Shown here in pieces: positions 25,903 to 64,000 of a stretch of DNA of 64,000 nucleotides; position 1 is the stretch's first letter; each line of letters begins with the position of its first letter. The stretch comes from an uncultured Desulfobacterales bacterium (GTDB taxonomy: Bacteria > Desulfobacterota > Desulfobacteria > Desulfobacterales > Desulfosudaceae). The stretch spans positions 943 to 64,942 of the forward strand of contig CAZWCS010000005.1 in assembly GCA_964632805.1 (NCBI GenBank), given 5' to 3'. The notes beneath the pieces are model-generated. The model had not been told where the DNA came from. It saw only the letters and a list, made by a program, of their open reading frames with translations, and did no database searches. A program made the position numbers and the translations under genes.

Positions 25903-25954
25903 TACGTCGCCTTTGTCATTTTTTAATAGACAGTCAGAAAGATGACCGGTCCGG

Positions 25955-28509: not shown

Positions 28510-29024
28510 CAACCAAAAATTTGCAACAGTTTTATAAGACCGGGAAATTGCCGGATGCAGATCACGGGCGTCTGCTTGAGCAGATAATTGCCCACGAAGA
28601 TCCGGAATTTGTTTTCCGGGCCGGGCGCCTCTGGCCAACCTTTGATTATGAAAAAGGCCTGCAGGCGCTGATTCAGTTTAAAAGCGCAAAATTTATCTAT
28701 CACGCCGGACTGGAATGGACCGCCTTTAACTGGTCGCGGGCCATGGAGGCTCTCTGTGCCCTGGAAGACGCCGCCTATCTTTTTTATGCCGGCGCTCACT
28801 GGAACACCTTTGACTATGATCTCGGCATGACTGCTTTGCTGAAAACAAAAAACTGTGAGTACCTGTTTAGAGCCGGAGTATTGTGGCCGTCATTTGATTA
28901 TGACCGGGCCTGGCGTGTTCTTGAAGCCGATATTGAAAACGGTGAAGTCTGGCGCGGCCTGGCCTTTGAAAATCCCGGCTGGAAGGCGGCCTTATCTGCT
29001 ATGTGGAAAAAATTCTGGCAATAG
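28506..29024 (+). CDS. uncharacterised protein built of four tandem 28-residue repeats
   Basis: 172-aa ORF, translationally coupled to the VWA gene. Repeats: DPEFVFRAGRLWPTFDYEKGLQALIQFK / SAKFIYHAGLEWTAFNWSRAMEALCALE / DAAYLFYAGAHWNTFDYDLGMTALLKTK / NCEYLFRAGVLWPSFDYDRAWRVLEADI. Confidence 0.7.
   Translation: MTTKNLQQFYKTGKLPDADHGRLLEQIIAHEDPEFVFRAGRLWPTFDYEKGLQALIQFKSAKFIYHAGLEWTAFNWSRAMEALCALEDAAYLFYAGAHWNTFDYDLGMTALLKTKNCEYLFRAGVLWPSFDYDRAWRVLEADIENGEVWRGLAFENPGWKAALSAMWKKFWQ
28599..28934 (+). repeat. 4 x 84-nt (28-codon) tandem coding repeats, conserved at protein level
   Basis: Consensus xxx[FY][LIV][FY]xAGxxWxxF[DN][YW]xx[GA]hxALxxxx, read directly from the translation. Confidence 0.8.
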
Positions 29025-36000: not shown

Positions 36001-36591
36001 ATCGAAGTCTCCGGTGTCCATGGTCAGCATGATGGAAATGCCGGCGGAATCCCGTCCGCGTACCTCCAGCCGGTCCAGGCTGTTCAAAGCCGTATTGATT
36101 TTTTTCAGCAAAGCGGCGGCAGTCAGGGTTTGTACTGTCTCTCCGGCCAGGGCTGCAGTTTTGGAAACATTGGCCGCCACCTCATTGCCCAGACACCAGC
36201 AGATATCCCGGACTTTTTCCAGCCGGCTGGCGACAATATCCGCCGAATTCCGGTCTAGCTGACCTATGGCCTGCTCCAGGGCGTCGTGTTCATTGTTGAC
36301 AACCTGTTGCAACCGCACCGCCAAATCGGAAACCGTGCAGCAGTCGCCCTCGGTGGTAAACAGATGAAAAAAAGCGGCATCCGTTTTAAGGGCCTGGGCG
36401 GTTTCCGCCAGCCGGGAGAGAATCTGGTCTCCTCCCAGGTAGTGATCCACCGTCAGAATATTCTTCGTGATACAAGCCTGACAGGTATGACCTTCCAGCT
36501 CTGTAATCAGTCGTTCTATCTTGGCGATATCCGCTGGCGCGTTATTCGGTTGCGGACCGACAACCGGGACAATCCCCACTATTCCGCACAT
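33019..36591 (-). CDS. giant (1190 aa) GlmS-like protein: class-II (Ntn) glutamine amidotransferase plus two SIS domains, with large insertions
   Basis: Starts MCGIVGIV (Cys2 nucleophile). RGRDSAGIS appears only at about residue 178. SIS motifs FFIGQGTAGVAA and VAISQSGTTTDT, with a second SIS around WATVGSGPNKASSDE. About 330 extra C-terminal residues. Confidence 0.7.
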   Translation of the reverse strand: MCGIVGIVPVVGPQPNNAPADIAKIERLITELEGHTCQACITKNILTVDHYLGGDQILSRLAETAQALKTDAAFFHLFTTEGDCCTVSDLAVRLQQVVNNEHDALEQAIGQLDRNSADIVASRLEKVRDICWCLGNEVAANVSKTAALAGETVQTLTAAALLKKINTALNSLDRLEVRGRDSAGISIMLTMDTGDFDRFQAILSRDGLWEEFSARSNPEVLVNNSLSFYQREGENRLSLAFVYKFAAEIGSLGDNIAFLRKQIRQDMIFQALLGFSCDTFTISAHTRWASVGTITEANCHPVDSRLKESSGAPGHILQVALNGDIDNFQELKAEHEAAGEVIPDAITTDTKIIPLRIEKYLKQGNALAESFRLALNDFTGAHAISLQTDLAPGKLFFAQRGSGQALFIGLAEDYYIVASELYGIVEETDRFIKMNAGERDGQIVCLNLETGGISGITVSHYDGAAAVFTAADISSTEITSRDVDRQGFPHYFLKEISEAPRSIENTLHNSWKINSHDPNTCEVLLDETVIPAELAADLSTEAVRRIFFIGQGTAGVAALAAAEITQYYLGDPAMSVCSLKSSELSGFNLQEGSDGQSMTDTLVVAISQSGTTTDTNRALDMVRKRGARTLAIVNRRDSDITFKVDGVFYTSTGRDIEMSVASTKAFYAQVVAGALLGLYISGLKGARSADFITQEIKQLLRLPNTLTRIFQNRQAIRKCARRLAGTKTYWATVGSGPNKASSDEIRIKLSELCYKTISSDFVENKKHIDLSAEPLILVCAAGARPGVVDDIVKDTAIFRAHKAAPVVITDEGEERFRPYAEGLIPVPPTAEHFGPVVNTFAGHLWGYYAALAINEGSRMLSEFRDQMQREIEQYRQQGLDLFEIVLENEFREKVLQFYNRFRQARNDPDLPVTIAFASDLALLLKYLSGRLPLADFELDFGRKGTAPNMIDTLFDYLGRSINQMARPVDAIKHQAKTVTVGTSRITEAVTGLLFEALEHNGLSLTQLTNSNIVVLKNVQEVVATIKGSILYEVDDLNLLGVPTDTSTISLLRKEGSLQNIPSRVETDNRLKGTKKIIVREGNVYIGKGRKDDRHIVIIPVLSSSPATGGMIRNILLLNIALKKDASLFARKKALGGKFERIKNYVQENSLVWQDKFLDFIDIHDLFGKSAEKIAETIIAAADNFPVGTGA

Positions 36592-44275: not shown

Positions 44276-45322
44276 CTATCCCTGCTGTTCCGTCTGGGTT
44301 TCGGGTATACCGGGATCCGGCCAGAGATGTCGGGCAAACTTCAAAAACCCCTGAACATTATTGAGGCGGGCGTCGGAATCGGCTGGAGGCATGATAATCT
44401 GGCCGTTTAAAAGCGGTTTCAGGTAATTGGCAAGTTCCATGCTGCCGCCGCCGGTTAAAAAGATCGACTCCATGTCCCAGTCATCGGCCCAGGTCTGGTT
44501 GATTTCGTTGGCGATGACTTCGGCGGTCTGGGTGAATATCTGCTCCTTGGTTTTGGCCAGATTGTATTCCTGGCCCTTCATTCTTATGGAGCCGAACTCT
44601 ACGGGGGTGTACAAGCGGTAGAGCTCCACCCCCAGACCGCTTTTCTGGCGAATTTTTTCCGCAATTTTGCGAAAACAGTCCGATATTCCTAAATTGATAG
44701 TCCTTGAACCGCGATTGATGTATTGCAGTTTATCGAACAGAACGTAATCCGTGGTATTAAAACCGATATCCACCACGCCGACTTTCTGCCGGGCCAGGTC
44801 CTTCTCCATCATTTTTCCGCGTTCATTCAAAATATGGTTTAACAAACTGCCGAAGGGCTGAGGGATCATACGAATTTTATTAATATTGATTCGACGCACG
44901 GCTTCGGAACCGTCGGGTTTGCGATAGACAATTTCGTGACTGCCCAGCAGTATTTTGCTGAATTTTTCTTTGTATTCGCGGAAATATACAACCGGCAGAC
45001 CGGAAACGACGTTTATCGGCACAAACGTTTCGGAAAACAGGCCGGTAATGGTCAGGGACAAAATTTTTAAAAAATCCGTAATGAGCTTGTCCTGGTCCAG
45101 CGTATAATGCCGTACATTACTCTGTTTTTCGGCATAATCGCCCACGAAATATTCTTTTCCGTCTATGGTCACATGCAGGCTTTCCGTCAGCGGAGCCATT
45201 GCAAAATCCGATAGAAACTGAATTTCTTCGGCTTGGCCGATCAGCGATTTAAACATAAGATGTTCTCTGCCGTTCGTAGCTTTTGTAAATCCAAAACCGA
45301 TATCCAGTCCCAGAACTTCCAT
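44276..45322 (-). CDS. ParM/StbA-like actin-fold ATPase
   Basis: ATG 45322 after GGAGGG. Phosphate-1 LGLDIGFGFTKAT, phosphate-2 VGVVDIGFNTTDYVLF, adenosine motif IFLTGGGS. Confidence 0.75.
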   Translation of the reverse strand: MEVLGLDIGFGFTKATNGREHLMFKSLIGQAEEIQFLSDFAMAPLTESLHVTIDGKEYFVGDYAEKQSNVRHYTLDQDKLITDFLKILSLTITGLFSETFVPINVVSGLPVVYFREYKEKFSKILLGSHEIVYRKPDGSEAVRRININKIRMIPQPFGSLLNHILNERGKMMEKDLARQKVGVVDIGFNTTDYVLFDKLQYINRGSRTINLGISDCFRKIAEKIRQKSGLGVELYRLYTPVEFGSIRMKGQEYNLAKTKEQIFTQTAEVIANEINQTWADDWDMESIFLTGGGSMELANYLKPLLNGQIIMPPADSDARLNNVQGFLKFARHLWPDPGIPETQTEQQG

Positions 45323-45404
45323 ATTTCCCTCCACGGAGTCAGGTCGGAAAAAACCGTCGGCATCCGTAACTGCCATCACAGAAAATTTGATTTTCCCCGG
45401 TCTG

Positions 45405-45876: not shown

Positions 45877-47058
45877 TCACCCCACCTTTTCCACCAGCAT
45901 GGCAGCGCCGTTGCCGAAGCCGCCGCACAGGGTGGCCAGGCCGTATTTTTCCTCCGGAAATTCCGTTTCCAGAATATTTAACAGGGTTACGATAATCCGG
46001 GCGCCGGATTCGCCCAGGGGATGTCCCAGAGCAATGGCCCCGCCCCAGACATTGATTTTGTCAAAGGGGGCGTTGTCCTTGTCCTCCAGCTTGAGCTCCC
46101 GGATACAGGCCAGAGACTGGCTGGCAAAGGCCTCGTTGATCTCAATGGCGCCGATGTCCGCCGGGGTCAAACCGGTTTTTGCAAAAAGCTTCCGTACCGA
46201 CGGGACCGGTCCATAGCCCATGATGGTGGGATCACAGCCGGCAAAAACGCCGCAGCTGTATTTGTAGGAATACGACAGGCCCAGCTCGTCGGCCTTTTTC
46301 CGGCTCATCATCAACAGGCAGCAGGCCCCCTGGGTCAGCGGCGAAGAAGTGGCGGCTGTTACCACCCCGTCCGGCTTGAAGGGGGATTTCATGGATTTCA
46401 TTTTTTCCGGGTCCACTTTGTCCCGGATCCACTGGTCATGCTCCACCAGAAATTCCTTGCCTTCCATGTCCAGACCGGTTACCGGAATGATCTCCTTCTT
46501 GAATTTGCCGGCGTCCCGGGCGGCAGCCGCTCGCTTGTTGGACCAGATGGCCATGTTGTCCATGTCCTCCCGGGCGACTTTATACTGCGCCGCAATTTTT
46601 TCCGCGGTGGCGCCCATGGGAATATCTTCCAGGGAATAGCGGTTGAGCAGGCGCGGCGGAAAATCCATGTTGGCGCCCATGGAGACTTTTTCCATGTCTT
46701 CCACCCCGGCGGCCAGAATAATATCGCTTTCGCCGGTCATAATCGCCCGGGCCCCGTGAATGGTGGCCGCCATTCCCGAAGGACACTGATTGGTAATGGT
46801 GTTGCTGGGAACACTTTCCGGATATCCCCCGGCCAGCCAGCCCAAACGCCCGATATCGTTCTGCATGCCGGATATATTGGCACTGCCGACAAAAACCGCG
46901 TCCACATCTTCCGGCTTCACCGCTTTATTGCGTTCAAACAACGCCTCATAAACGGCGGTCAGCAGTTCGTCGGGCCGTTTGTTCCGAAACCAGCCTTTCT
47001 CCGCGTGCGCCCGACTGTTGGGGGTGCGAATGCCGTCAATAAATACACATTCTTCCAT
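45877..47058 (-). CDS. acetyl-CoA C-acyltransferase (3-ketoacyl-CoA thiolase)
   Basis: 393-aa ORF. Active-site Cys context ITNQCPSGMAA, C-terminal NVWGGAIALGHPLGESGARI and LCGGFGNG. Confidence 0.9.
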   Translation of the reverse strand: MEECVFIDGIRTPNSRAHAEKGWFRNKRPDELLTAVYEALFERNKAVKPEDVDAVFVGSANISGMQNDIGRLGWLAGGYPESVPSNTITNQCPSGMAATIHGARAIMTGESDIILAAGVEDMEKVSMGANMDFPPRLLNRYSLEDIPMGATAEKIAAQYKVAREDMDNMAIWSNKRAAAARDAGKFKKEIIPVTGLDMEGKEFLVEHDQWIRDKVDPEKMKSMKSPFKPDGVVTAATSSPLTQGACCLLMMSRKKADELGLSYSYKYSCGVFAGCDPTIMGYGPVPSVRKLFAKTGLTPADIGAIEINEAFASQSLACIRELKLEDKDNAPFDKINVWGGAIALGHPLGESGARIIVTLLNILETEFPEEKYGLATLCGGFGNGAAMLVEKVG

Positions 47059-47097
47059 AAATTTTTTCTCCTTTGCTGTAATTGCTCTGCTTCCGTT

Positions 47098-48945
47098 TCA
47101 GTTCACTTCCGCTTCCGCCATTTTGCGCATGGCTTTTTTGTCCAGTTTCTGGACCTCCGTCAGTGGCATTTCCTTGATAATCTTCACCACTTTCGGAACC
47201 GCGTATTTGGCCACCCGCTCGCGCAAATATTCGATTATCTCTTCCGGCTGCAGCGTTTCCGCAAACTCGGGAACCGGCTGCACATAGGCCACCACCCGCT
47301 CACTTCCCTCCCGCTCGGGATCGGGCACGCCCACGGTGGCCCCCATCTCCACCGCCGGGTGGGCGCAAAGAATGTCATCCAGCTCCCGGGTGTAGACCTT
47401 GTATCCGGAAACATTGACCATGTCCTTGGTCCGGTCGACAATGTAAAAATAACCATTCTCGTCCACCTTAACCACGTCCCCGGTCCGCACATACCCGTTT
47501 TCATCCAGACCGCTCCCGGGCTCCGGCCAGTAGCCGAGCATGCGCTGCGGCCCCTTGAGGCACATTTCGCCTCTCTTACCGGCGATAATTTCCTCCACCG
47601 ACAGCGGCGCCCCGGTTTCCACGTCAATCAGCAGAATTTCCGTGTCCGGAAAAGGAATGCCCACGGCGCCGCGTTTTTCATCCGAAGGACGCCCTTTCTT
47701 GCTTTTTCCGGTGCGCTGCACGGTAAAGGAAATAAATTTGCCCACCGCCGTGCCGATCATCTTCCCGCCCAGCAGGCGCAGCCCCCGGTTGGTCAGCGGG
47801 GCTACTCCCGGCAGACCCAGCAGGGTACTGTTGATTCGCTGGGGAATCCGGCCGCCGGTCAACCGCAGCAGAAAAGAAGTGTTTAAGTGCGTGTTCGGCG
47901 ACATTTCCGACAGGCCATAGCCCTCCATAATAGCCCCGCTGGATTTTTTCTCGAACGCTTCCTGGGTACTCGGCGGCAGCGGGGCGGAGCCGGAAATCCC
48001 CAGCATGCCGATGCCGGCCAGCTCCTCCTGGGCCAGCTTCAAAAACTGGGTGGGCACCCCCATCTGCATCAACGGCCGGTGCTTTTTGATCATATCCACC
48101 ATGATGCGGGTATCCCGGGGATCGGGAATAAGGATCTGGTCAAATCCCAGCATGGTCATGGCGTGCATGATCATATGCCCGTAAGAGTGAAACAGGGGCA
48201 GACCCACCAGAACAGAGATAGCGCCTTTCAGAATCCGGCTGGCCGATCCCTGGGCCCAGGAAGACTGCAGGCAGTTGGCGTAAATGTTACGGTGCGTCAG
48301 CATGCAGCCCTTGGGCAGGCCGGTGGTGCCGCCGGTAAACAGCAGCAGCTCCAGATCCCTGTCCAGATCAAAATTTACCGCCGGCGGCGTCCCGGTGCTC
48401 TCAGCAATGAGATCGGCCATCCAGCGGGCCCCCGGAATATCCAAAGGCTTGCGGGCCGCCGGTGGAGAGGCAGAATAATCCGCCAGTGAGGTAACAATAA
48501 GGTGGGCAATGCCGGTGGCTTCCATAACGGGTTGGGCCAGATCCAGATACTCATCCAGGCAGATCAGGGCCTGGGGCGTCCCTTTGGTGAACTTGTGTTC
48601 CAGGGTGCTGGGCGGTTCCAGGGAGCTGCTGGGGATTTGCACCAGTCCGGCTTTGGCAATGGCATAATCGGCCACTACAAACTGAATGCTGGTCGGCAGA
48701 ATGGTCGCCACCCGGTCGCCTTTATTCAGTCCCAGGTCCAAAAGCGCGGATGCCAAGCGATTGGCTTCATCCCTGACCCGGGGGTAGCTCATCTTGTAAT
48801 CGTTCTGAATAAAGCCCTGCCTGGGAAATTCCACAGCGGCATCATCCAGAATATCCCCCACGGATTTTTCCGGATAGGGTTGAATGGTTTCCGGAATGCC
48901 AAAAACCTTGTACTCGTTCATCCACGGCAATTTTGGTGCGCTCAC
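47098..48945 (-). CDS. AMP-forming acyl-CoA ligase (long-chain fatty-acid type) with about 70-aa internal insertion
   Basis: 615-aa ORF. AMP-binding motif LLFTGGTTGLPKGCMLTH, then YGLSE ... GDVVKVDENGYFYIVDRTKD ... K near the C-terminus. The insertion lies between YGLSEMSP and GAVGIPFP. Confidence 0.85.
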   Translation of the reverse strand: MSAPKLPWMNEYKVFGIPETIQPYPEKSVGDILDDAAVEFPRQGFIQNDYKMSYPRVRDEANRLASALLDLGLNKGDRVATILPTSIQFVVADYAIAKAGLVQIPSSSLEPPSTLEHKFTKGTPQALICLDEYLDLAQPVMEATGIAHLIVTSLADYSASPPAARKPLDIPGARWMADLIAESTGTPPAVNFDLDRDLELLLFTGGTTGLPKGCMLTHRNIYANCLQSSWAQGSASRILKGAISVLVGLPLFHSYGHMIMHAMTMLGFDQILIPDPRDTRIMVDMIKKHRPLMQMGVPTQFLKLAQEELAGIGMLGISGSAPLPPSTQEAFEKKSSGAIMEGYGLSEMSPNTHLNTSFLLRLTGGRIPQRINSTLLGLPGVAPLTNRGLRLLGGKMIGTAVGKFISFTVQRTGKSKKGRPSDEKRGAVGIPFPDTEILLIDVETGAPLSVEEIIAGKRGEMCLKGPQRMLGYWPEPGSGLDENGYVRTGDVVKVDENGYFYIVDRTKDMVNVSGYKVYTRELDDILCAHPAVEMGATVGVPDPEREGSERVVAYVQPVPEFAETLQPEEIIEYLRERVAKYAVPKVVKIIKEMPLTEVQKLDKKAMRKMAEAEVN

Positions 48946-48998
48946 AACAGACCTCCCTTTCGGCTGACCGGGGTTTTCCTGTTTACCAACGCCGAAAG

Positions 48999-49565
48999 TT
49001 AGCCGAAGATCGGCTGAAGCTGCATGGCAAAGGCCATATCGCCTTCAATCTGCAGGCCGCCGGACATAAACAGGTTGACCGGGTTGGTCTCCTTGTTGAC
49101 CACCGCAATGGAATCGGCGGTTTTCATCTTCAGTATGGTATGCGGGGTTTCCGCACCATTTAACGTGATCTTGATCGGCATCACACTTCCGTCGTCGTTG
49201 GTAAGCTCTATCGTCAAACTTCCTTTGACGTTGACTATAGCATCATACTTGGATTTGTTCAAATCCCCCTGAACGCCCAGGAACATGTCCATGGTATCCA
49301 TCTCGATCATTTTCTGCAGGTCTTCCTGGGCGATATTGATTTTGATCATGGGATTGTCCATTCCCCCTTCTTTCACATCAAAATCGGTGCCGTTTTTGAC
49401 CACATAGCTGTATTGATCACCGGATACATCCACCACCATGGAAAACTCCGTGCCCGCAAGGTCTGCGGCGGCGCCGCTTTCGGCAATCATTTCCTTGGCC
49501 ATTTTGGGGGAAAAGTCCAGCAGAAGGTCTTTTAAACTGATGTCTTTGGGTATTTCCATTTTCAT
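48999..49565 (-). CDS. SCP2 (sterol-carrier-protein-2-like) lipid-binding domain protein
   Basis: ATG 49565 after AAAGGAGA. The C-terminal half ...TILKMKTADSIAVVNKETNPVNLFMSGGLQIEGDMAFAMQLQPIF is typical of the SCP2 fold. First gene of the ligase/thiolase operon. Confidence 0.65.
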   Translation of the reverse strand: MKMEIPKDISLKDLLLDFSPKMAKEMIAESGAAADLAGTEFSMVVDVSGDQYSYVVKNGTDFDVKEGGMDNPMIKINIAQEDLQKMIEMDTMDMFLGVQGDLNKSKYDAIVNVKGSLTIELTNDDGSVMPIKITLNGAETPHTILKMKTADSIAVVNKETNPVNLFMSGGLQIEGDMAFAMQLQPIFG

Positions 49566-49727
49566 TGTGCGTTCTCCTTTGCTTTTTTTAATATTGCACT
49601 GCCCTTTTCGACCGGCAATAAGTCCGCTTATGGATTCCGCCGGTACCTGTTTTTTCCCTGCAAGTCCTTCGAGTAGCAATCACCTCCTTTTACAAAATAG
49701 AAATTCCTCTTCTTGCCAACAAAATTC

Positions 49728-49755
49728 TTGACAAGCAGAGAGGGAAGTCTAAAAT
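49728..49755 (+). promoter_or_regulatory. candidate sigma70 promoter for the TetR gene (TTGACA-16-TAAAAT)
   Basis: TTGACA at 49728-49733 and TAAAAT at 49750-49755. The -10 box overlaps the left arm of the palindrome. Confidence 0.5.
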
Positions 49756-49784
49756 ATAAAACTGACATGTCAGTTTTATATTTT
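49751..49784. promoter_or_regulatory. perfect 34-bp palindrome, probable TetR operator
   Basis: AAAATATAAAACTGACA|TGTCAGTTTTATATTTT (17+17, no mismatch). It lies between the divergent TetR gene and the SCP2/ligase/thiolase operon. A mirror-image TTGACA lies on the minus strand at 49802-49807. Confidence 0.7.
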
Positions 49785-49908
49785 GCCCCAAAATCATTTG
49801 GTGTCAAGAAAAATTGTCGCGGAGCAAAAAATTTTTTATGCGAAAATCAAAATCCTGCCATCACGGCGGAAAGGGATAACGAAACATAAATAAGGCGGGC
49901 GTTTCACC

Positions 49909-50532
49909 ATGAAAGCGGAAAAACGCAAAAAAATCATTTTGGCCTGCGCCAAGCGGCTTTTTTCCACCTACGGCTTTTACCGAACCCAAATATCGGATAT
50001 TGTAAAAGAAATAAAAATCGCCCGGGGAACCGTATACCAATATTTTGCCAACAAACAGGATATCTTTATTACCCTGCTGGAAAACGCCTACAATCAGTGG
50101 GAAAAAGAAATCTCCCGGGCCGTGGGAGAAATCGACCTGAAAACCATTACCCCGGTGGACTATTTCCGGCGGCGGATCAAATCCACCCTGGCCTTTCTGA
50201 TTGCCGATCCGGACATCTGTAATATTGTCATGACCATGGGATTCGGATTGCCGGCGGAACTCGAGACCGCCACCCGGCAACTGGAAAAAAAAATCCGGAT
50301 CATCGCCGAAAACGATTTCAAGCTGGGTTTACACAACCGGCATGTGCGGGACAACCTGAATGTCAAGCTGGCCGGAGAAATGATCGCCGGCGCCCTCTTC
50401 CGTACGGCCTATTACGCCCTGGCGCAAGCGGAAAAAGACAGTCGGGCCGTGGATATCGACGCCCTGACCGAGGAGATGGTGGCTCTGTTTGCGCCCGGTA
50501 TTTTCAAACCGGCGTCTTTGGGGGAAGGGTAA
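49909..50532 (+). CDS. TetR-family transcriptional regulator
   Basis: 207-aa ORF. N-terminal HTH ILACAKRLFSTYGFYRTQISDIVKEIKIARGTVYQYFANKQDIF. Confidence 0.9.
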   Translation: MKAEKRKKIILACAKRLFSTYGFYRTQISDIVKEIKIARGTVYQYFANKQDIFITLLENAYNQWEKEISRAVGEIDLKTITPVDYFRRRIKSTLAFLIADPDICNIVMTMGFGLPAELETATRQLEKKIRIIAENDFKLGLHNRHVRDNLNVKLAGEMIAGALFRTAYYALAQAEKDSRAVDIDALTEEMVALFAPGIFKPASLGEG

Positions 50533-56906: not shown

Positions 56907-58160
56907 CTACATCATTTCCAAGGCCGTGGCCATGGAAACGCCGCCGCCGCCGCAGAGGGTGGCCAGACCCAGATTTTTTCCCCGTTTTTTCATGGCGTAC
57001 AGCAGAGAGACCATGATGCGGGCGCCGGTGCAGCCCACCGGGTGGCCCAGGCCGATACCGGAGCCGTTAACGTTGGTAATCTCCCGGTTCAACCCCAGTT
57101 CCTTTTCGCAGCCCAGATACTGAGCGGCAAAGGCTTCATTCAGCTCGATCAGTTCAAAAGCGTTCAGGTTCAAGTCCGGATTTTTCCGCAACAGATCGTT
57201 CACCGCCGGCACCGGGCTGAGGCCCATGACGGAAGGATGGCAGGCGCCCCGCCCCACTGCGGTGATCCGGGCCAGAGGGGTCAGCCCCAGCTCCCGGGCT
57301 TTATCCGCAGACATGAGAATCATGGCCGCGGCGCCGTCATTCAAGCCGGAAGCGTTGCCGGCCGTGACCTTGCCGATTTTGGGAATAAAGGCCGGCGGCA
57401 GTTTGGCCAGCTGCTCCAGGGTGGCCCCGGCCCGGAAATGTTCATCCTTGTCAAAAATTACCGGGGGTTTACCTTTTTTCTGGGGGATTTCCACCGGCAC
57501 GATCTCTTCCGCAAAATCGCCCTCTGCGGTAGCGCGTTCAGCATTGTTATGGCTTCTGACCGCAATTTCGTCCATCTCTTCCCGGCTGATATCATGATAA
57601 GCGGCGATCAGTTCCGCCGTATGGCCCATAATATAGGGTTTTCCCCGCAGATGATCGATGACTTCGCCTTCCTTGACCGGTCCGTCCTCCGGATGGGGAA
57701 TGATGTGAGAACCGCAGTGCAGCGCCCGCATCAAAGCGTCCACGAAGGTCTTGTCCTGCAGCCGGCAGCCCCAGCGGGCCTCGGGGACAATATACGGCAC
57801 ACCGGACATATGTTCCACACCGCCCGCCAGAATGATGTCGGCCATGCCTGCCTGAATCATGGCCATGCCGCTTACGGCCGCTTCCATCCCGGAAATACAT
57901 ACCCGGTTGATGGTCACGGCCGTAATATTGTCCGGAATATCCGCCAGCAGGGCCGCGGTACGGGTGACATTCAAAGCGTCCGCCGGGTCCAGGCAGCACC
58001 CGAAACGCACATCATCAATGATTTCCGCTTCGATGCCGGCCCGGGCAATGGCCTCCTTCATGGCCACGCTGCCGATCCGGGCGGCGTGAAGGTCTTTCAT
58101 GGACCCGCCGAATGTACCGATCGCGGTTCTGCAAGCCGAAACGATCACCACCTCTTTCAT
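56907..58160 (-). CDS. acetyl-CoA acetyltransferase (thiolase II-like)
   Basis: ATG 58160 follows AAGGAG. MKEVVIVSACRTAIGTFGGS, active-site INRVCISGMEA, C-terminal NVNGSGIGLGHPVGCTGARI and LCGGGGVS. The upstream 110 codons of the nominal ORF are not thiolase-like. Confidence 0.9.
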   Translation of the reverse strand: MKEVVIVSACRTAIGTFGGSMKDLHAARIGSVAMKEAIARAGIEAEIIDDVRFGCCLDPADALNVTRTAALLADIPDNITAVTINRVCISGMEAAVSGMAMIQAGMADIILAGGVEHMSGVPYIVPEARWGCRLQDKTFVDALMRALHCGSHIIPHPEDGPVKEGEVIDHLRGKPYIMGHTAELIAAYHDISREEMDEIAVRSHNNAERATAEGDFAEEIVPVEIPQKKGKPPVIFDKDEHFRAGATLEQLAKLPPAFIPKIGKVTAGNASGLNDGAAAMILMSADKARELGLTPLARITAVGRGACHPSVMGLSPVPAVNDLLRKNPDLNLNAFELIELNEAFAAQYLGCEKELGLNREITNVNGSGIGLGHPVGCTGARIMVSLLYAMKKRGKNLGLATLCGGGGVSMATALEMM

Positions 58161-58307
58161 AACCATCTCCTTTTTCTTCATTTTCGTATGCTTGTTGTTT
58201 TCGTAAAAAATTCGGATGGTATAACAGAATGAAAAAAGAGTCAAATTCTTTTCCCGGCCCTGTCGACAACCGGAAGATAGTGGCATGGAAAGACATTGGA
58301 CGGGCTT

Positions 58308-58366
58308 GACACGGATTTCACGGATGACACGGCAAACAAAAAAACCGTCAAAATTGACAAATTGAC
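58308..58366. repeat. short tandem repeats in the thiolase upstream region: 3 x 9 nt (GACACGGAT / TTCACGGAT / GACACGGCA) and 2 x 8 nt (AAATTGAC)
   Basis: Read directly: the 9-mers run 58308-58334, and the perfect 8-mer duplication runs 58351-58366. Confidence 0.7.
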
Positions 58367-58372
58367 TTAAGA

Positions 58373-59299
58373 TTACAGACCAATCCGGGGCCGCAAATCC
58401 CAGAAATAATCCAGAACATCCTCTTTCATCGGGGTCTGCATCTCCATGGACAAGGCGTTCCGGGGGCAACGGAAAGCGCATAACCCGCACCCGATGCAAA
58501 GATCTCCGTCAACGGAAAAACCGTCCGGCCCGAAGGCTATGGCCTCCATGGGGCAGGTTTGTTCACAAACGCCGCACTCCACGCAAGTATCGCCGACAGA
58601 CGGCTGCCAGCCGATGGACCGGAATCGCGACATAAACCGCCTGTCATAGAATTTAAAGGAGCGCAGCCCCTGACAGCAACAGGGGCAACAGAAGCATATC
58701 TCCACCACCTGGTCGCGCCGTTCTTCGGGAACCCCGAGCATGACCATTTCCATGCCGACCCACATGGTCAGACAGACCAGGCCCAGTTCCGCCGCCCGCT
58801 CAATATGCGCCAGCGCCTCGTCCACTGTAGCCTCCCGGGCGGTCCCCCGCTCCACCATGCAGCGACACCCCTCGCCGATCATAAGACATCCCAGATCAAT
58901 GGGGTATTTCTTGCATTGCAGACCGTCCCGGCAGAAACATTTGTGTTTTATAGCCCGGAAAGAAGCATCTTCCGCCGCTTTCCGGACCAGATCGATCGGC
59001 ACGGTGGTGCTTTCCGCCTGCCCGGCATAATTGAGATTCCGGTTGATGGGAAAAATATGGGCCTGGGTGGGATTGTCCCGGCCGTCCATCACCGACAGCC
59101 AGCGCATAACCGGCCCCAGAACCGGCAGGGAAAGATATTTCATCCACCAGCGGATAAAGGGATGAATTGTAATGTATTTATCCCAGTTGTCTTCAGAGAT
59201 GGCGATATACCGGGAAAAAAACCGGCTGCCGCCCATTCCGAACAGCCCGTTTAAATGCAGGGGACTGTGTTGCTTTCGGCGCTGGTTCCATTTTCGCAT
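58373..59299 (-). CDS. cysteine-rich Fe-S protein, paralogue 2
   Basis: ATG 59299 after AGGAGG. HKCFCRDGLQCKKYPIDLGCLMIG, EICFCCPCCCQGL, CVECGVCEQTCP, CIGCGLCAFRCP. Confidence 0.8.
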   Translation of the reverse strand: MRKWNQRRKQHSPLHLNGLFGMGGSRFFSRYIAISEDNWDKYITIHPFIRWWMKYLSLPVLGPVMRWLSVMDGRDNPTQAHIFPINRNLNYAGQAESTTVPIDLVRKAAEDASFRAIKHKCFCRDGLQCKKYPIDLGCLMIGEGCRCMVERGTAREATVDEALAHIERAAELGLVCLTMWVGMEMVMLGVPEERRDQVVEICFCCPCCCQGLRSFKFYDRRFMSRFRSIGWQPSVGDTCVECGVCEQTCPMEAIAFGPDGFSVDGDLCIGCGLCAFRCPRNALSMEMQTPMKEDVLDYFWDLRPRIGL

Positions 59300-59357
59300 G
59301 GATTTCCACCTCCTGTCGGCCCCCTGCGCAGGGACAGGGGGGCCGCCCTGATACCCG

Positions 59358-60278
59358 TTATTCCCGATTTTCCCGACTGACATTCTCCATCAGCCGACCG
59401 TCTCTTTGCAAAGCATACACTTTGCCCAGGGCCGCCACCGCAATACTGCCCATGGCCAATCCCCCGATCAGTCCCACCACCGGCTTCTGTGCCACCACAA
59501 GCACCAGCCCCAGGGCGTTCAAAAACAACACCAGATAAAGCGCCAGAGGACCATAGACGGTCAAATAGACGGATTTACGGGGCACCCGGCCGGTTTCCAG
59601 CATGAAGAAACGATAAATCAGCTGACAGACAAAAGCCACCTTCAACCAGCCGATAAAGTTGCTGATGGGAACCCCCTCGGCAATTTCCGGGAGATAAGGA
59701 CCGCCCTCGTGCCAGACCCACCAGCCCCGACCCACGGCAAAGGGATCCATCATCAGATCCCAGGTGGTGGTAGCCAGGGCGCCGAGCAGCGCCAGGACCA
59801 GATACGGCATCAGCCGCGTTGCCGGCGGTTTGGCCATATCGAACCGGAACCCCAGCAGAAAATCAGCCACATAATAGGCGGAATAGAGTATCGGCTCCCA
59901 GGCCAGGGCCACCAGCAGCGGCACCCCGATAATCTGAAAACCCAGGGCCTCGGGATAGTGGTAATGGCCGAAAACCATCCCGAAATGAACTCCCAGGGCC
60001 TCTGCGGTAAAGGCGCATAAAAACGTCAGCCCGAATGCCCCCAGACTGCGCCCCCATCCCTTGGTCAATACAGAATGCCAGATAACAAAAACATTCAACA
60101 GGATAATCAGGTTCATGGTATTGCATTCAAAAAACCCGAAGCCGCCGGTGATGACGGTCATGTCAAAGCCAAACCATGCTTTGCTCAAATGGATGCCAAA
60201 ATAAAGCCCGAAAAGTTCAATGGCACCGAAGACGCAGATATAAATAAACGCCCCCCGTCCCAAATCGGCATCATTCAT
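59358..60278 (-). CDS. polytopic membrane protein, DUF422 / 'carotenoid biosynthesis protein'-like
   Basis: AAGGAGG RBS. 306 aa with about 8 hydrophobic segments. ALGVHFGMVFGHYHYPEALGFQIIGVPLLVALAWEP resembles the DUF422 signature as I recall it. Confidence 0.5.
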   Translation of the reverse strand: MNDADLGRGAFIYICVFGAIELFGLYFGIHLSKAWFGFDMTVITGGFGFFECNTMNLIILLNVFVIWHSVLTKGWGRSLGAFGLTFLCAFTAEALGVHFGMVFGHYHYPEALGFQIIGVPLLVALAWEPILYSAYYVADFLLGFRFDMAKPPATRLMPYLVLALLGALATTTWDLMMDPFAVGRGWWVWHEGGPYLPEIAEGVPISNFIGWLKVAFVCQLIYRFFMLETGRVPRKSVYLTVYGPLALYLVLFLNALGLVLVVAQKPVVGLIGGLAMGSIAVAALGKVYALQRDGRLMENVSRENRE

Positions 60279-60392
60279 GTTCGCCTCCTTTTTTGATCAT
60301 TGAGAGGTATCCGCACCGGGCATTTCCATTCTTTCCCCATTTATTCCGGCTCCCGCTGCTTTTTCTTTTCCCGTAAACTTGCCGGAACCCCT

Positions 60393-61289
60393 TCAAACGG
60401 GATTTACCGGCGCCACCAGCCCGGTGAACTGTTCACTGAGCAGCCAAAGCGCCCGCCCCACGGTCGCATCTCTTGCATTGGCCGCGGGTGTTTTGCGCCG
60501 GGTGAGTTCAAAATACTGACCGCTGACCTTTTCCAGTTCGGGACTGGCCGCCAGATAATAGATGGCCTCCCCGGCCGCAGTGACCGGTGTCAGATAAATG
60601 CGGTCCAGAATGGCGGTTTTGATAAAATGATAAACCGCGCCGTTGTTTTCCACCCCGATATTGGTCACCACCTGTCCCGGATGGAGGCAGTTGACGGTCA
60701 CCCCGCTGTGTTTCAGACGACCGGCCAGCTCCCGGGTAAATATAATGGCCGCTGTCTTGGAAGCGCCATAGCTTTTGGTCCCCCGATATTTGCGTTTTTC
60801 CCAGTGCAAATCGTGAAGATCCAGCCCCCCGAATTGATGCCCTTTGGAAGCGGTAATGACGATCCGCGCCGGGGCGCTGGCCTGCAGCCGCTCAAGCAAC
60901 AGGCGGGTGAGCAGAAACACGGACAGATAATTAACGGCAAACACGGTTTCAAATCCATCAACCGTGATGGTGCGGGTGGTATAAAACACACCGGCGTTAT
61001 TGACCAGCACATGAATGGCGGGACAGGTTTCCAGCAGTTGTCCGGCCAGCCGGCGCACCTCCGCAAAAGAAGAGAGATCGGCCAAAAGCAGGTCAACCGG
61101 CCCTTTGGACGTGGCGGTGACTTCTTTCCGGGCCTTTTCTCCTTTCTCCCGGTTGCGGCAAACCATTACCAGGTGAGCCCCTTTTTCGGCCATCCGCCTG
61201 GCGGCTGCAAACCCTACGCCGGAATTGGCGCCGGTAACAACACAGACGCGGCCCACCAGAGAAGCCCCGGTTGTATGCTGTTTTTTCAT
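60393..61289 (-). CDS. short-chain dehydrogenase/reductase (retinol-dehydrogenase-like SDR)
   Basis: VCVVTGANSGVGFAAA (TGxxxGxG), NNAG, and a catalytic YGASK context. Confidence 0.85.
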   Translation of the reverse strand: MKKQHTTGASLVGRVCVVTGANSGVGFAAARRMAEKGAHLVMVCRNREKGEKARKEVTATSKGPVDLLLADLSSFAEVRRLAGQLLETCPAIHVLVNNAGVFYTTRTITVDGFETVFAVNYLSVFLLTRLLLERLQASAPARIVITASKGHQFGGLDLHDLHWEKRKYRGTKSYGASKTAAIIFTRELAGRLKHSGVTVNCLHPGQVVTNIGVENNGAVYHFIKTAILDRIYLTPVTAAGEAIYYLAASPELEKVSGQYFELTRRKTPAANARDATVGRALWLLSEQFTGLVAPVNPV

Positions 61290-61340
61290 ATTTGGCCCCT
61301 TATAAACAACTCGTCTCCCGAATGGAAAATTCGGGATCGA

Positions 61341-62162
61341 TCAGGTTACATCCCCGAAAGCCGCAATGCGTTGAATGGTTTCCTGCTTAAAATCGGGATT
61401 GTCCAGGGTCAGCCGGACGGCCTTTTCCGGACAGGCAGCCGCGCACCGGCCGCAACCCCGGCATTTATCCCCGTGAACCGCTTTGCCGGCTTCGACAGCA
61501 ATATTTTCATACGGACAAAAGGTCAGACAGGTACCGCAGCCCACGCATTGATCCGTTACTTCCACTTGCAGGCCCGGCAGCGGCGGTGCAATGGTGTGAA
61601 TCTGTTCGGCGGGAAGCCAGTTGTAAAAACGGGTCATGCAGCAGCAGTGGCAACAGAAACAGATGGCGATCAGTTTCCCTCTTTCCGGAATATGAAACAG
61701 AAAATTATCCACTACCGCCTTGCCGATATTGGGAACCAGGCCTGCGGCGATGGCTTTTTGAACATGTGCCCGGGCCTCCGCCTTGGTAACCATCCGTCCG
61801 AGACCGGCGGAAATATCCCGGGCGCTTTCCCCCAGAAAGAGGCAACCGATATCATGCGGAAAATTCTGACAGCTGTATGCCGTGCGGCAGCCGCAGGAGT
61901 TGACAATCATCCGGTGCGAAGACCGGTCGATAAATTCCCATAAAATCTGTTCCGGAAGGGGCACGCTGTCAAACTGCAACTCCGCGTTAATGGGTAACGG
62001 CGTCAGAATGTTCTTGTCCGCGGTTACCCAGGGATGCCATTTGCGAAGGCCGGGCAGCGCCACCACCCGGCAGACAAATTTGATACCCCCCAGCATGATT
62101 CGCAAAAACGCCGGGGATTTGCTGAATCGGGCCGCCATGTGGTCGTAAAATTGTTTGAACAT
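61341..62162 (-). CDS. cysteine-rich Fe-S protein, paralogue 3
   Basis: ATG 62162 lies 5 nt after GGAGG. NSCGCRTAYSCQNFPHDIGCLFLG, AICFCCHCCCMTR, CVGCGTCLTFCP, CRGCGRCAAACP. Confidence 0.8.
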   Translation of the reverse strand: MFKQFYDHMAARFSKSPAFLRIMLGGIKFVCRVVALPGLRKWHPWVTADKNILTPLPINAELQFDSVPLPEQILWEFIDRSSHRMIVNSCGCRTAYSCQNFPHDIGCLFLGESARDISAGLGRMVTKAEARAHVQKAIAAGLVPNIGKAVVDNFLFHIPERGKLIAICFCCHCCCMTRFYNWLPAEQIHTIAPPLPGLQVEVTDQCVGCGTCLTFCPYENIAVEAGKAVHGDKCRGCGRCAAACPEKAVRLTLDNPDFKQETIQRIAAFGDVT

Positions 62163-62196
62163 TTTGGCCTCCGTCCCTGGCAAAAGTTATTGTCGG

Positions 62197-62901
62197 CTAC
62201 TCCCGGCGTGCCGGACAGTCCGTGCGGGGACAATCATGACAGGGATTGTAGCCCGCAACATCCTTGTCTTCCCGCAAGCGGGCCACCCCGATCACCCCGG
62301 ATATGGATTTGCGGGGAAGCATCAAAAACGACTCCGTGAGGGTCACCCCGGTGGGGCAATCTGCAAACAGGCCAAAAACCGTTTTCTGCTCCCGAAGGGG
62401 CCAGTCGCAGTAGCCGGGGCTGAAGCGACGGGTCACCCCTTTCTCTTCAGCGGCATATTTTTCCCCTAAGTGTTTGTGAAACGTCTCCACCATGCTTTCC
62501 GCCGCCAGGGAGCCGATTACATCAAGAATATACGCCTCCGTGAGCGATCCCTCCGACATGACTTTTGCCAGGCGCTCTTCCAGCCACCCGCCGATGGTTC
62601 CGATAAAGCAGACCGCCTCCTGACAGTACGACAGTGTCTTACAAATTCTGGAGCTTTTTATTTGCACATTGTCTCCGGCAAGGCATAACGCTTTTTTGTC
62701 TACGTACTCGATTGACTGTATCCGGTAATGCAGCCGGGGTTGAAACAGATCATCCACCTCCGGCAGCAGATGATTGACAATGCTCTCCACCGAAGGGGCC
62801 AGACGTTTTTTGCGATGATTATTGGTTAAGGCCCCGACAATATCTGCTTGGGATAATTGAACCGGCTCCCGGTACAGGGTCACGTCAGTTGTAGTAACCA
62901 T
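62197..62901 (-). CDS. stand-alone protein resembling the MetH (B12-dependent methionine synthase) reactivation/AdoMet-binding domain
   Basis: 234-aa ORF. RRFSPGYCDWPLREQKTVFGLF...GVTLTESFLMLPRKSISGVIGV matches the Met_synt_B12 activation-domain signature as I recall it. The start overlaps the upstream gene by 17 nt. Confidence 0.65.
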   Translation of the reverse strand: MVTTTDVTLYREPVQLSQADIVGALTNNHRKKRLAPSVESIVNHLLPEVDDLFQPRLHYRIQSIEYVDKKALCLAGDNVQIKSSRICKTLSYCQEAVCFIGTIGGWLEERLAKVMSEGSLTEAYILDVIGSLAAESMVETFHKHLGEKYAAEEKGVTRRFSPGYCDWPLREQKTVFGLFADCPTGVTLTESFLMLPRKSISGVIGVARLREDKDVAGYNPCHDCPRTDCPARRE

Positions 62902-64000
62902 ATTTTTTCACGGATTCAAACATCACCTTAACATTCTCCGGCTTGCCGTCCGGGGCCAGTTCACAGCCGGACCCCAGGCAGTAGCCCCCGTCTTTGCCCA
63001 CCACTTCAATGAGTTTGCGACAGTATTGATCCACATCGTCCGGTGTTCCCGTAGCCAGCATCTGGGCCGGGACATCGCCGTAAATGCAGATATGACCTTG
63101 CAGGATATCCTTGGCCCGGAAAATGTCCGAGGTGCCGTCAAACTGGATCATGCATTTGCGGGGCGGCAGATCCAGCAGGATTTCCAGGTTTTTGTCCCAG
63201 TTGCCGTCACAGTGAAGCACCAGATCAAATCCTTTTTCGGCCAGGCGGGTAACTATGGCCTTCAGAGAAGGAAAGGAAAGTTGCTGGAACTGTTTGGGGG
63301 AGATAAACGAGTTGGAGGAGCGGTGGAGAAATATCCAGGTTCGTTTGGGGCCGCCGATCATCCGGGCCACCACCTCGGACAGATACACAAAACTGTCTAC
63401 GCAGGCATTGGCGGCTTCCGCGATTTCCTCCGGCCGCTGGAAAATATCCCGGGAAAAAGTTGTCATGGAACGCAGCAGGGAAAAATTGTCAAACGGCGCC
63501 ATCAGGGCGCTGTTCCATAACCGCGGTACCCCCCGTTTTTCCCATTTTTTCCGGAAGCGCCGGAACCAGAGTGTATCCCAGCCCAGCTTGGAATAAACGG
63601 ACAAAAGCATGAGCAGCGTATTCCGGGGCAAATCGGGATATGTCCGGCGCAACATCTTAACCAGAAAATCTGCATACAGCAGGCGCCGGGGAACGAGACC
63701 CGCATTCCGCAGTGTCTGGTAATCTGCGACGGTCATGACTTCTTCTTCCATTTGCTGGGCCTGGGCATCCGGAGGTAACTCCTTTCCCGGCCAAGCGGTT
63801 TTCATGGGAATGGTCCAGAGCTGGGTCAGCGGCTGGCTGCTGTTATCATGATAGATGGCGTCAATGGGCCCCAGTTCGCTGTAAAACTTTTCCCAGGCAT
63901 GGGAGCGCTTTTCTTCATCCGTCCACAGTTCGGCCGAGGTAATTCCCGCGTACTGGCTTAAAAAATACCCCAGCAACGGCACCACCGGCACCCGGTCCGG
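62885..64000 (-). CDS. uroporphyrinogen-decarboxylase (URO-D)-fold family protein, MtaA/CmuA-like methyltransferase candidate; 5' end probably beyond the window
   Basis: The frame is open to the window edge. (PDR)VPVVPLLGYF resembles the DRVPV start region of URO-D-family proteins. C-terminal DGGYCLGSGCELAPDGKPENVKVM. Confidence 0.6.
   Translation of the reverse strand, partial: PDRVPVVPLLGYFLSQYAGITSAELWTDEEKRSHAWEKFYSELGPIDAIYHDNSSQPLTQLWTIPMKTAWPGKELPPDAQAQQMEEEVMTVADYQTLRNAGLVPRRLLYADFLVKMLRRTYPDLPRNTLLMLLSVYSKLGWDTLWFRRFRKKWEKRGVPRLWNSALMAPFDNFSLLRSMTTFSRDIFQRPEEIAEAANACVDSFVYLSEVVARMIGGPKRTWIFLHRSSNSFISPKQFQQLSFPSLKAIVTRLAEKGFDLVLHCDGNWDKNLEILLDLPPRKCMIQFDGTSDIFRAKDILQGHICIYGDVPAQMLATGTPDDVDQYCRKLIEVVGKDGGYCLGSGCELAPDGKPENVKVMFESVKKYGYYN

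Follow-up and report, generated by a model that had tools for sequence, protein, structure and literature searches.

Three paralogous 18-cysteine proteins combining a ferredoxin domain with a putative additional metal site

Three paralogous genes and their cysteine motifs

The 64-kb stretch of contig CAZWCS010000005.1 from an uncultured Desulfobacterales bacterium, hereafter the window, carries three genes for cysteine-rich iron–sulfur (Fe–S) proteins, each consisting of an N-terminal domain with ten cysteines (Cys10 domain or N-domain) and a C-terminal 2×[4Fe-4S] ferredoxin domain. All coordinates are given in window positions. An original prediction, made from the letters of the window, had described three colinear paralogues of 273–308 aa, each with a CxCRx4Cx8-9GC block (block 1), a poly-Cys block (CFCCPCCC twice, CFCCHCCC once) and a ferredoxin pair. 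The open reading frames (ORFs), their alignment and the motif coordinates bear out this description; all three ORFs are present at the predicted positions, on the minus strand throughout. Their features are as follows.

22967-23833, minus strand: paralogue 1, 288 aa, TTG start at 23833; N-terminal Cys10 domain and C-terminal 2×[4Fe-4S] ferredoxin domain
23471-23524, minus strand: paralogue 1, block 1, CLCRTGNKCQTHDQNLGC; Cys104, Cys106, Cys112 and Cys121
23258-23281, minus strand: paralogue 1, poly-Cys block CFCCPCCC; Cys185, Cys187, Cys188, Cys190, Cys191 and Cys192
23051-23170, minus strand: paralogue 1, two CxxCxxCxxxCP motifs of the 2×[4Fe-4S] ferredoxin domain (Fer4 match and motif search)
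58373-59299, minus strand: paralogue 2, 308 aa, ATG start at 59299 with an AGGAGG ribosome-binding site ahead; same two-domain architecture
58886-58939, minus strand: paralogue 2, block 1, CFCRDGLQCKKYPIDLGC; Cys121, Cys123, Cys129 and Cys138
58673-58696, minus strand: paralogue 2, poly-Cys block CFCCPCCC; Cys202, Cys204, Cys205, Cys207, Cys208 and Cys209
58463-58585, minus strand: paralogue 2, two CxxCxxCxxxCP motifs of the 2×[4Fe-4S] ferredoxin domain (Fer4, PDB sequence and Foldseek matches)
61341-62162, minus strand: paralogue 3, 273 aa, ATG start at 62162 with a GGAGG ribosome-binding site ahead; divergent subfamily with CFCCHCCC
61842-61895, minus strand: paralogue 3, block 1, CGCRTAYSCQNFPHDIGC
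61638-61661, minus strand: paralogue 3, poly-Cys block CFCCHCCC
61428-61547, minus strand: paralogue 3, two CxxCxxCxxxCP motifs (Fer4 match and motif search)

Aligned end to end, paralogue 1 shares 38% identity with paralogue 2 and 28% with paralogue 3. The proteins contain 19, 21 and 19 cysteines, respectively, 18 of which are common to all three. In six-frame translation, the window contains C.CC.CCC exactly three times; the cysteine frequency would predict about 6e-5 occurrences. Judged by their sequences, the three proteins are true paralogues. Each of the first two has close relatives elsewhere: L014_8 (64% identity) and P0037 (56%) are nearest to paralogue 1, while paralogue 2 has one homologue at 85% identity (P0001) and five at about 62% (P0002–P0006).

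Domain content and predicted structure

Scans of the full proteins against Pfam and NCBIfam returned the C-terminal Fer4 pair as the sole match, which in paralogue 1 covers residues 220–265 only. PF00037 scored 38.5–45.2 bits in all three proteins (Pfam gathering threshold, 21.1). The C-terminal 55–60 residues form a canonical 2×[4Fe-4S] ferredoxin (Fer4/Fer4_7/Fer4_21), with Fer4 E-values of 1e-10 to 1e-12. This domain makes up about a fifth of the protein and holds eight of the 18 cysteines. The first ~200–230 residues, including an N-terminal module of ~175 aa with a predicted α/β fold, fit no Pfam or NCBIfam model, and the first ten cysteines lie, as predicted, outside ferredoxin spacing.

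Paralogue 2 was modeled with AlphaFold2 from an alignment of 63 sequences, with a predicted local distance difference test score (pLDDT) of 88.9 and a predicted template modeling score of 0.87. In this model, the CxC pair of block 1 is located just past strand 115–118, and the poly-Cys block occupies the end of strand 199–204 and the loop after it. When the full model was compared with the PDB by Foldseek, the ferredoxin domain alone matched, its counterpart being the PorD delta subunit 9bt4_G (E 3.9e-4, root-mean-square deviation 1.4 Å). The likeness to this subunit and to clostridial-type 2×[4Fe-4S] ferredoxins is thus confined to the C-terminal domain. A model of the N-domain only (pLDDT 74.9) gave a best Foldseek match in the PDB of E 1.1, and PDB sequence searches with one of the proteins and with an N-domain profile gave no match for this domain. 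With neither a sequence nor a fold match in the PDB, the N-domain has no solved structural relative detectable by these tools.

No catalytic domain of acetyl-CoA synthase (ACS, alpha subunit) or carbon monoxide dehydrogenase (CODH) was matched in PDB sequence or Foldseek searches, and the same searches revealed no sequence or fold likeness to ferredoxin:thioredoxin reductase (FTR). The original prediction had compared the first ten cysteines with the CCG motifs of HdrB. Indeed, both sets comprise ten cysteines outside ferredoxin spacing, with adjacent cysteines among them. However, the HdrB motif is Cx31-39CCx35-36CxxC, present twice, whereas the window proteins have CxCRx4Cx8C and CxCCxCCC; the Pfam scan of the three proteins gave no CCG (PF02754) match at E up to 1, and no HdrB chain matched the N-domain in PDB sequence or Foldseek searches. 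The comparison therefore holds as an analogy only. As none of the Pfam, NCBIfam and PDB searches identified a well-characterized subunit, the novelty claimed for these proteins stands on that ground.

Conservation and distribution of the family

A homologue search yielded 105 mostly metagenomic proteins of about 290 aa. In an alignment of 63 sequences with 26–63% identity, all 18 cysteines are invariant, together with the CxCR arginine and a small number of Gly and Pro residues. Both CxC pairs (C121/C123 and C202/C204 in paralogue 2) thus belong to the invariant set, and six further N-domain cysteines are present. When 448 homologues were aligned to the N-domain profile, 397 were found to keep all ten N-domain cysteines; the third is missing in a 361-aa subfamily and the ninth in IsrA-like proteins of ~890 aa. 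The extra cysteines are therefore retained in most orthologues, and this strong conservation makes an additional, non-standard metal site at the ten N-domain cysteines very likely.

The family is widespread. An exhaustive profile search of 1.84 billion representatives returned 920 clusters (at 50% identity) with E ≤ 1e-3, including 310 with E ≤ 1e-10 and 108 with E ≤ 1e-30. A search of one genome per species for C[FL]CC[PD]CCC turned up at least 396 relatives, whose hosts are Desulfobacterota (including Desulfatibacillum alkenivorans, where strain DSM 16219 has the homologue L010, and Desulfosudis oleivorans), Spirochaetota, Anaerolineae, Clostridia, Lachnospiraceae, Oscillospiraceae and Eggerthellaceae. 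A single branch, the Firmicutes of gut and rumen, accounts for 578 clusters at 90% identity. The ~361-aa subfamily mentioned above (L019, L021, L014 and L016) is a third related group, in which the Cys-rich domain lacking the third cysteine is preceded by an N-terminal extension; in Desulfobacterota, its gene is often close to the 18-cysteine gene. A '4Fe-4S protein' of Desulfosporosinus orientis (P0096, 368 aa), of similar size to this subfamily, was a distant match.

Relationship to IsrA and the isr operon

In Acetobacterium wieringae ISORED-2, isoprene induces an operon for IsrA (901 aa), two HypA, one HypB and a 350-aa '4Fe-4S ferredoxin', VUZ27135.1 (Kronen 2023, PMC10134865). The isr ferredoxin is assigned to ENOG4105DQ9 and credited with one [4Fe-4S] cluster. 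Its induction by isoprene (log2 fold change 9.91) ranked second among all proteins, and its first ~270 residues, which carry no annotated domain, align with those of IsrA (PMC10134865). ColabFold modeling of IsrA brought six cysteines together, two CxC pairs among them, in a hypothetical 'cluster V' located where the predicted substrate tunnel ends, and this cluster was suggested as a possible nickel site served by HypA/HypB; hypA and hypB occur near 73% and 56% of IsrA homologues, respectively (PMC10134865). The isoprene reductase function of IsrA itself is putative and derives from proteomics, and literature searches for biochemical work on IsrA or on a nickel-dependent alkene reductase found only Kronen 2023, Jin 2022 and two 2026 preprints, none of which contains biochemistry.

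The N-domain profile (A3) matched two IsrA-like proteins from related loci, L034_9 (897 aa, E 6.6e-10) and L017_7 (890 aa, E 5.5e-10), which served for the comparison. The CxCR block, the cysteines downstream of it, a helix with EEA..RAE..GLV and the block ICNCCGCSC line up in the profile alignment. The two CxC pairs, of the kind grouped in 'cluster V', are among the invariant cysteines of the window-type domain. On the strength of this homology (E ~6e-10), the window N-domain and the N-terminus of IsrA-like clade-9 oxidoreductases belong to one domain superfamily. IsrA homologues and, in the wider family, the short form are both associated with HypA/HypB, an accompanying rather than a defining trait. 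The two types nevertheless differ in architecture: in IsrA-like proteins, the domain is fused to a GltD/NfnB-like FAD/NAD(P)H module and has six to nine of the ten cysteines, while the short form carries it with the 2×[4Fe-4S] domain only and keeps all ten.

Like the isr ferredoxin, the window proteins have an unannotated, IsrA-homologous N-domain followed by a ferredoxin domain. In contrast, they are shorter (273–308 aa versus 350 aa), the genome that encodes them is Desulfobacterota-like, and hyp and isrA-like genes are absent from their vicinity. The published account differs as well, since it credits the isr ferredoxin with one cluster and reports no Hyp association for its orthologous group, whereas 18 invariant cysteines and a frequent Hyp linkage are found here in the family. 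Locus L034 contains the isr gene set minus hypB, in the order IsrA-like, HypA, short form, IsrA-like and HypA, and Firmicutes proteins of 335–365 aa, the length class of the isr ferredoxin, have CFCCPCCC and stand beside hypA and hypB. From the shared architecture, length class and operon partners, we infer that the window proteins fall in the isr-ferredoxin architectural family. The A. wieringae protein was not found by name among the 120 homologues listed in a second homologue search. The original prediction had seen a role that it could not name; through the IsrA N-domain and the isr-operon ferredoxin architecture, the family is now partly named. It has been reported once in the literature, where it was described as a ferredoxin, and the window proteins are new members.

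Linkage to hypA and hypB in relatives

HypA and HypB are thought to serve hydrogenases, as well as urease in Helicobacter. Gene neighborhoods were analyzed in 80 related loci, L001–L080, of which L001–L025 are the 25 most similar to the window proteins; a neighbor cluster ('c1') of antisense ORFs overlapping the family gene was left out. By counts from hidden Markov models, the short-form gene has hypA within 3 kb at 32 of the 80 loci and hypB at 27; most of these hyp genes are 0–80 bp away on the same strand, often in the order hypA-FeS-hypB. Every hyp-linked locus falls in L026–L080. The possibility that these genes are parts of hydrogenase clusters was rejected, as no [NiFe]-hydrogenase large-subunit, HypD or HypE motif was found within 8 kb of the hyp-linked genes.

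The arrangement takes several forms. In many gut and rumen Firmicutes, the unit consists of just the three genes hypA-FeS-hypB, often preceded by a TetR regulator. De novo neighbor clustering revealed an operon recurring in Chloroflexi, Firmicutes and Actinobacteria, which comprises ArsR, a DAO/amine-oxidase-like flavoprotein of ~381 aa, a membrane-anchored SRPBCC-like protein ('c4'), the Fe–S protein, HypA and HypB. In P0304 (566 aa, NCBI source), the 18-cysteine protein is fused in frame to a HypB/CobW-type GTPase domain (PF02492 at 382–539).

Two further observations concern these loci. At the Firmicutes loci L028, L038, L043, L050, L059, L070, L074 and L079, the ORF called directly upstream of the Fe–S gene gives an apparent HypA-like product of only ~80 aa, and the HypA-like product of L064 keeps the MHE start and is missing the two CxxC zinc motifs. 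Such a short product may be a truncated, nickel-only HypA variant dedicated to the Fe–S protein. At L037 (9947-11225, minus strand), a CdhD-like protein of 332 aa with a membrane domain at its C terminus is encoded beside a 98-aa ferredoxin ending in CSCC, a pair resembling the mercury-methylation pair hgcA/hgcB; it lies directly downstream of the ArsR-FAD-SRPBCC-FeS-HypA-HypB operon and is followed by a second ArsR gene.

Other partners of the family

The closest relatives of paralogue 2 (62–63% identity) are encoded directly upstream of a 900–990-aa fusion of an amine-oxidase/CrtI-like domain (Amino_oxidase) with Fer4_20 and Pyr_redox_2. The latter two constitute the GltD/NfnB-like module also found in IsrA, here joined to a different domain, and the pairing looks like a 'split IsrA' arrangement. 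At one of these loci, the fusion is followed by a second amine oxidase and a START protein. Downstream of a paralogue 1 relative are a double FAD_binding_4 protein, an aldehyde:ferredoxin oxidoreductase (AOR) and an amine oxidase. Proteins of the paralogue 3 type are located, in one case, after two acyl-CoA dehydrogenases (ACADs) and the electron-transfer flavoprotein (ETF) alpha/beta genes and, in another, inside an ABC-transporter operon.

A paralogue-3-type module with CFCCHCCC is also fused to an NAD-dependent epimerase/3-beta-HSD-type short-chain dehydrogenase/reductase (SDR) in P0184 and L016_4 (42% identity). This fusion is probably the source of the Joint Genome Institute (JGI) name 'UDP-glucose 4-epimerase' on some short members. 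The SDR encoded after paralogue 3 in the window belongs to a different subfamily from the fused one. Since the SDR part of P0184 is not BLAST-similar to the window SDR, the fusion supports only a loose link to the SDR superfamily. The L016 fusion is a 587-aa protein adjoining a 361-aa relative. Among the relatives, START and the SRPBCC-like c4 recur as hydrophobic-ligand partners, and TetR and ArsR regulators recur near family genes. The common threads are flavoprotein partners and hydrophobic-ligand-binding proteins, and no single pathway emerges.

Gene neighborhood in the window

Paralogues 2 and 3 lie in one co-directional run with the following genes, identified by Pfam.

56907-63991, minus strand: co-directional seven-gene run holding paralogues 2 and 3
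62885-63991, minus strand: URO-D-like gene, first of the run
62197-62901, minus strand: Met_synt_B12-activation-like gene, between the URO-D-like gene and paralogue 3
60393-61289, minus strand: SDR, after paralogue 3
59358-60278, minus strand: Caroten_synth/PF04240 membrane protein, between the SDR and paralogue 2
56907-58190, minus strand: thiolase, after paralogue 2 and last of the run

Paralogue 1 is a single-gene unit divergent from an ACAD-like gene (24196-25902, plus strand). All copies had been noted to lie beside acyl-CoA or methyl-transfer genes; this holds locally in the window and is not conserved in relatives. When the 80 related loci were searched for the window neighbors, thiolase, SDR and the PF04240 protein gave one isolated match each, and the URO-D, Met_synt_B12-like, ACAD-like and HEAT neighbors gave none. 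Relatives of the PF04240 membrane protein were recovered from four loci in a metagenome scan, and the Fe–S gene is absent from all four. As these neighbors are conserved neither in the 80 loci nor in the PF04240 scan, they were rejected as definers of function.

Several genes of the window deserve mention in their own right. The URO-D-family (MtaA-like) gene overlaps the Met_synt_B12-activation-like gene, whose product ends in CHDCPRTDCP (62197-63991, minus strand), and paralogue 3 follows directly downstream of the two; the isoprene-induced proteins of A. wieringae also include a methyltransferase and a member of the URO-D family, possibly by coincidence. The ACAD-like protein divergent from paralogue 1 is unusually long (568 aa), and its gene is followed, within 24196-29024 (plus strand), by genes for a weak-match AAA+ ATPase, a DUF2201 putative metallopeptidase and a 172-aa ORF without Pfam match. 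On the minus strand, a thiolase, an AMP-dependent ligase and an SCP2 sterol-transfer-domain protein make up a second lipid-type cluster (45877-50532), from which a TetR regulator gene diverges. Elsewhere, the window encodes a YcaO-domain protein (3131-4858, plus strand), an AOR (11090-13006, minus strand), a protein of 1190 aa that combines GATase and SIS domains with long unannotated stretches (33019-36591, minus strand) and an Alp/ParM-type actin-like protein (44276-45379, minus strand).

Possible function of the Cys10 domain

The reading we favor, tentatively and at a little short of even chances, is that the proteins are ferredoxin-fed modules in which a complex, possibly nickel-containing cluster reduces a hydrophobic unsaturated substrate. 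The invariance of the cysteines, the homology to IsrA, the hyp linkage, the HypB fusion, the flavoprotein and hydrophobic-ligand partners and the confident AlphaFold2 model all count in its favor; so do the PF04240 carotenoid-type membrane protein, the SDR and the SCP2 protein of the window, which fit the hydrophobic-ligand theme. The ten N-domain cysteines (CxCRx4Cx8C and CxCCxCCC), located at or just after β-strand ends in the model, probably build a complex metallocluster. Given the link of the family to HypA/HypB in many lineages, this cluster probably contains nickel beside or within its Fe–S core, and in that respect the Cys10 site would resemble the A-cluster of ACS or the C-cluster of CODH. 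The working analogy, also drawn by Kronen et al. (PMC10134865), is that of cysteine-ligated nickel on an Fe–S cubane, fed by [4Fe-4S] clusters and supplied by a dedicated GTPase metallochaperone. Apart from the differences in sequence and fold described above, however, the cysteine spacing is another one, and the metallochaperones of ACS and CODH are AcsF or CooC (G3E GTPases), not HypA/HypB.

According to this scheme, electrons would be supplied by reduced ferredoxin or a partner flavoprotein, for which the GltD/NfnB-like, CrtI/amine-oxidase-like and ETF-linked proteins are candidates. The two [4Fe-4S] clusters would relay them to the Cys10 site, where a hydrophobic unsaturated substrate, e.g., a C=C bond in an isoprenoid, an alkene or an acyl chain, would be reduced; the net effect would be a split, ferredoxin-fed version of IsrA. 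The three window copies may serve different lipid or acyl-CoA-related pathways, and nickel, if used, would come from hyp genes elsewhere in the genome. It is further conceivable, if rather unlikely, that the Cys10 domain represents an unrecognized class of nickel-iron-sulfur site, matured by HypA/HypB without HypCDEF and hydrogenating unactivated or conjugated C=C bonds, in which case the stand-alone 18-cysteine proteins would be small ferredoxin-dependent alkene/diene reductases.

Several points weigh against the proposed nickel-dependent reductase. Neither hypA nor hypB is present in the 64-kb window, and no hyp genes were found near the family gene in L001–L025; the nickel link is therefore extrapolated from other clades. 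The varied neighborhoods (beta-oxidation with ETF, ABC transporter, FAD_binding_4 and AOR) also suit a general electron carrier. Our literature search on the family and on IsrA found no metal, spectroscopic or activity report. Finally, the orthologous group of the isr ferredoxin was published as lacking an association with HypA/HypB (PMC10134865), which conflicts with the counts of 32/80 and 27/80 obtained here.

The most serious alternative, and a realistic one, is a pure electron-transfer protein, in which the ten cysteines bind one or two extra Fe–S clusters, cubane or non-cubane, without nickel, and which wires flavoenzymes or ETF to other partners or to the membrane. The contexts are indeed very varied and rich in flavoproteins (ACAD with ETF, Amino_oxidase/GltD-like and FAD_binding_4), and the lack of hyp genes in the window and its closest relatives also speaks for such a carrier. 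HdrB likewise uses ten cysteines to bind its two non-cubane clusters. Yet a carrier of this kind does not account for the short-form gene between hypA and hypB at many hydrogenase-free loci or for the in-frame HypB fusion, and no signature of CCG or another known cluster domain is present. In IsrA, moreover, the homologous domain is the sole module without an assigned role and the only candidate active site besides the FAD. The hyp linkage in many lineages points beyond the electron-transfer role suggested originally, to a nickel-bearing and possibly catalytic site.

A thiol/disulfide or heterodisulfide-type reductase, with a redox-active disulfide of CxC/CC cysteines beside a [4Fe-4S] cluster as in FTR or HdrB and a disulfide or sulfur-containing substrate, appears improbable. 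CxC pairs beside a cluster are a hallmark of FTR, a likeness noted by Kronen et al. (PMC10134865), and the adjacent cysteines (CC and CCC) would be well placed for disulfide chemistry. On the other hand, the N-domain is unlike FTR and HdrB in sequence and fold, the linkage to HypA/HypB would be left unexplained, and the recurring partners are lipid-binding or CrtI-like rather than thiol-related.

Very improbable is an accessory role in the HypA/HypB system, i.e., nickel or metal storage, buffering or delivery by a chaperone partner instead of a client enzyme: the gene order hypA-X-hypB and the X-HypB fusion would fit it too, and metal-buffering proteins are typically very rich in cysteine, but a 2×[4Fe-4S] electron-transfer domain is always present, IsrA-like proteins have the N-domain fused to an NAD(P)H/FAD oxidoreductase, hyp genes are missing near most members of the family, the three window copies among them, and no nickel client such as a hydrogenase is encoded in the vicinity.

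Significance

New here are the invariance of the 18 cysteines, the N-domain without a sequence or structural model, the linkage of the family itself to HypA/HypB together with the HypB fusion, and the split-IsrA arrangement. To our knowledge, only about ten kinds of nickel enzyme have been described. A widespread, unmodeled ten-cysteine domain that is often encoded between hypA and hypB and is fused to a putative isoprene reductase therefore offers a concrete, expressible target of ~300 aa in which to test for a new Ni–Fe–S cofactor. For the window, it singles out three loci whose function is not readable from the generic annotation "4Fe-4S binding protein". If the Cys10 site is catalytic, the family would provide a handle on the anaerobic hydrogenation of unactivated alkenes, i.e., on the isoprene sink, on the biohydrogenation of lipids in rumen and gut, and on the way sulfate reducers metabolize alkenes. 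Should its members be alkene/diene reductases, they would be candidates for anaerobic hydrogenations that have no enzyme assigned to them, for example the reduction of conjugated fatty-acid dienes in the rumen or gut or, in sulfate reducers like Desulfatibacillum alkenivorans, the step that saturates isoprenoid lipids or alkenes.

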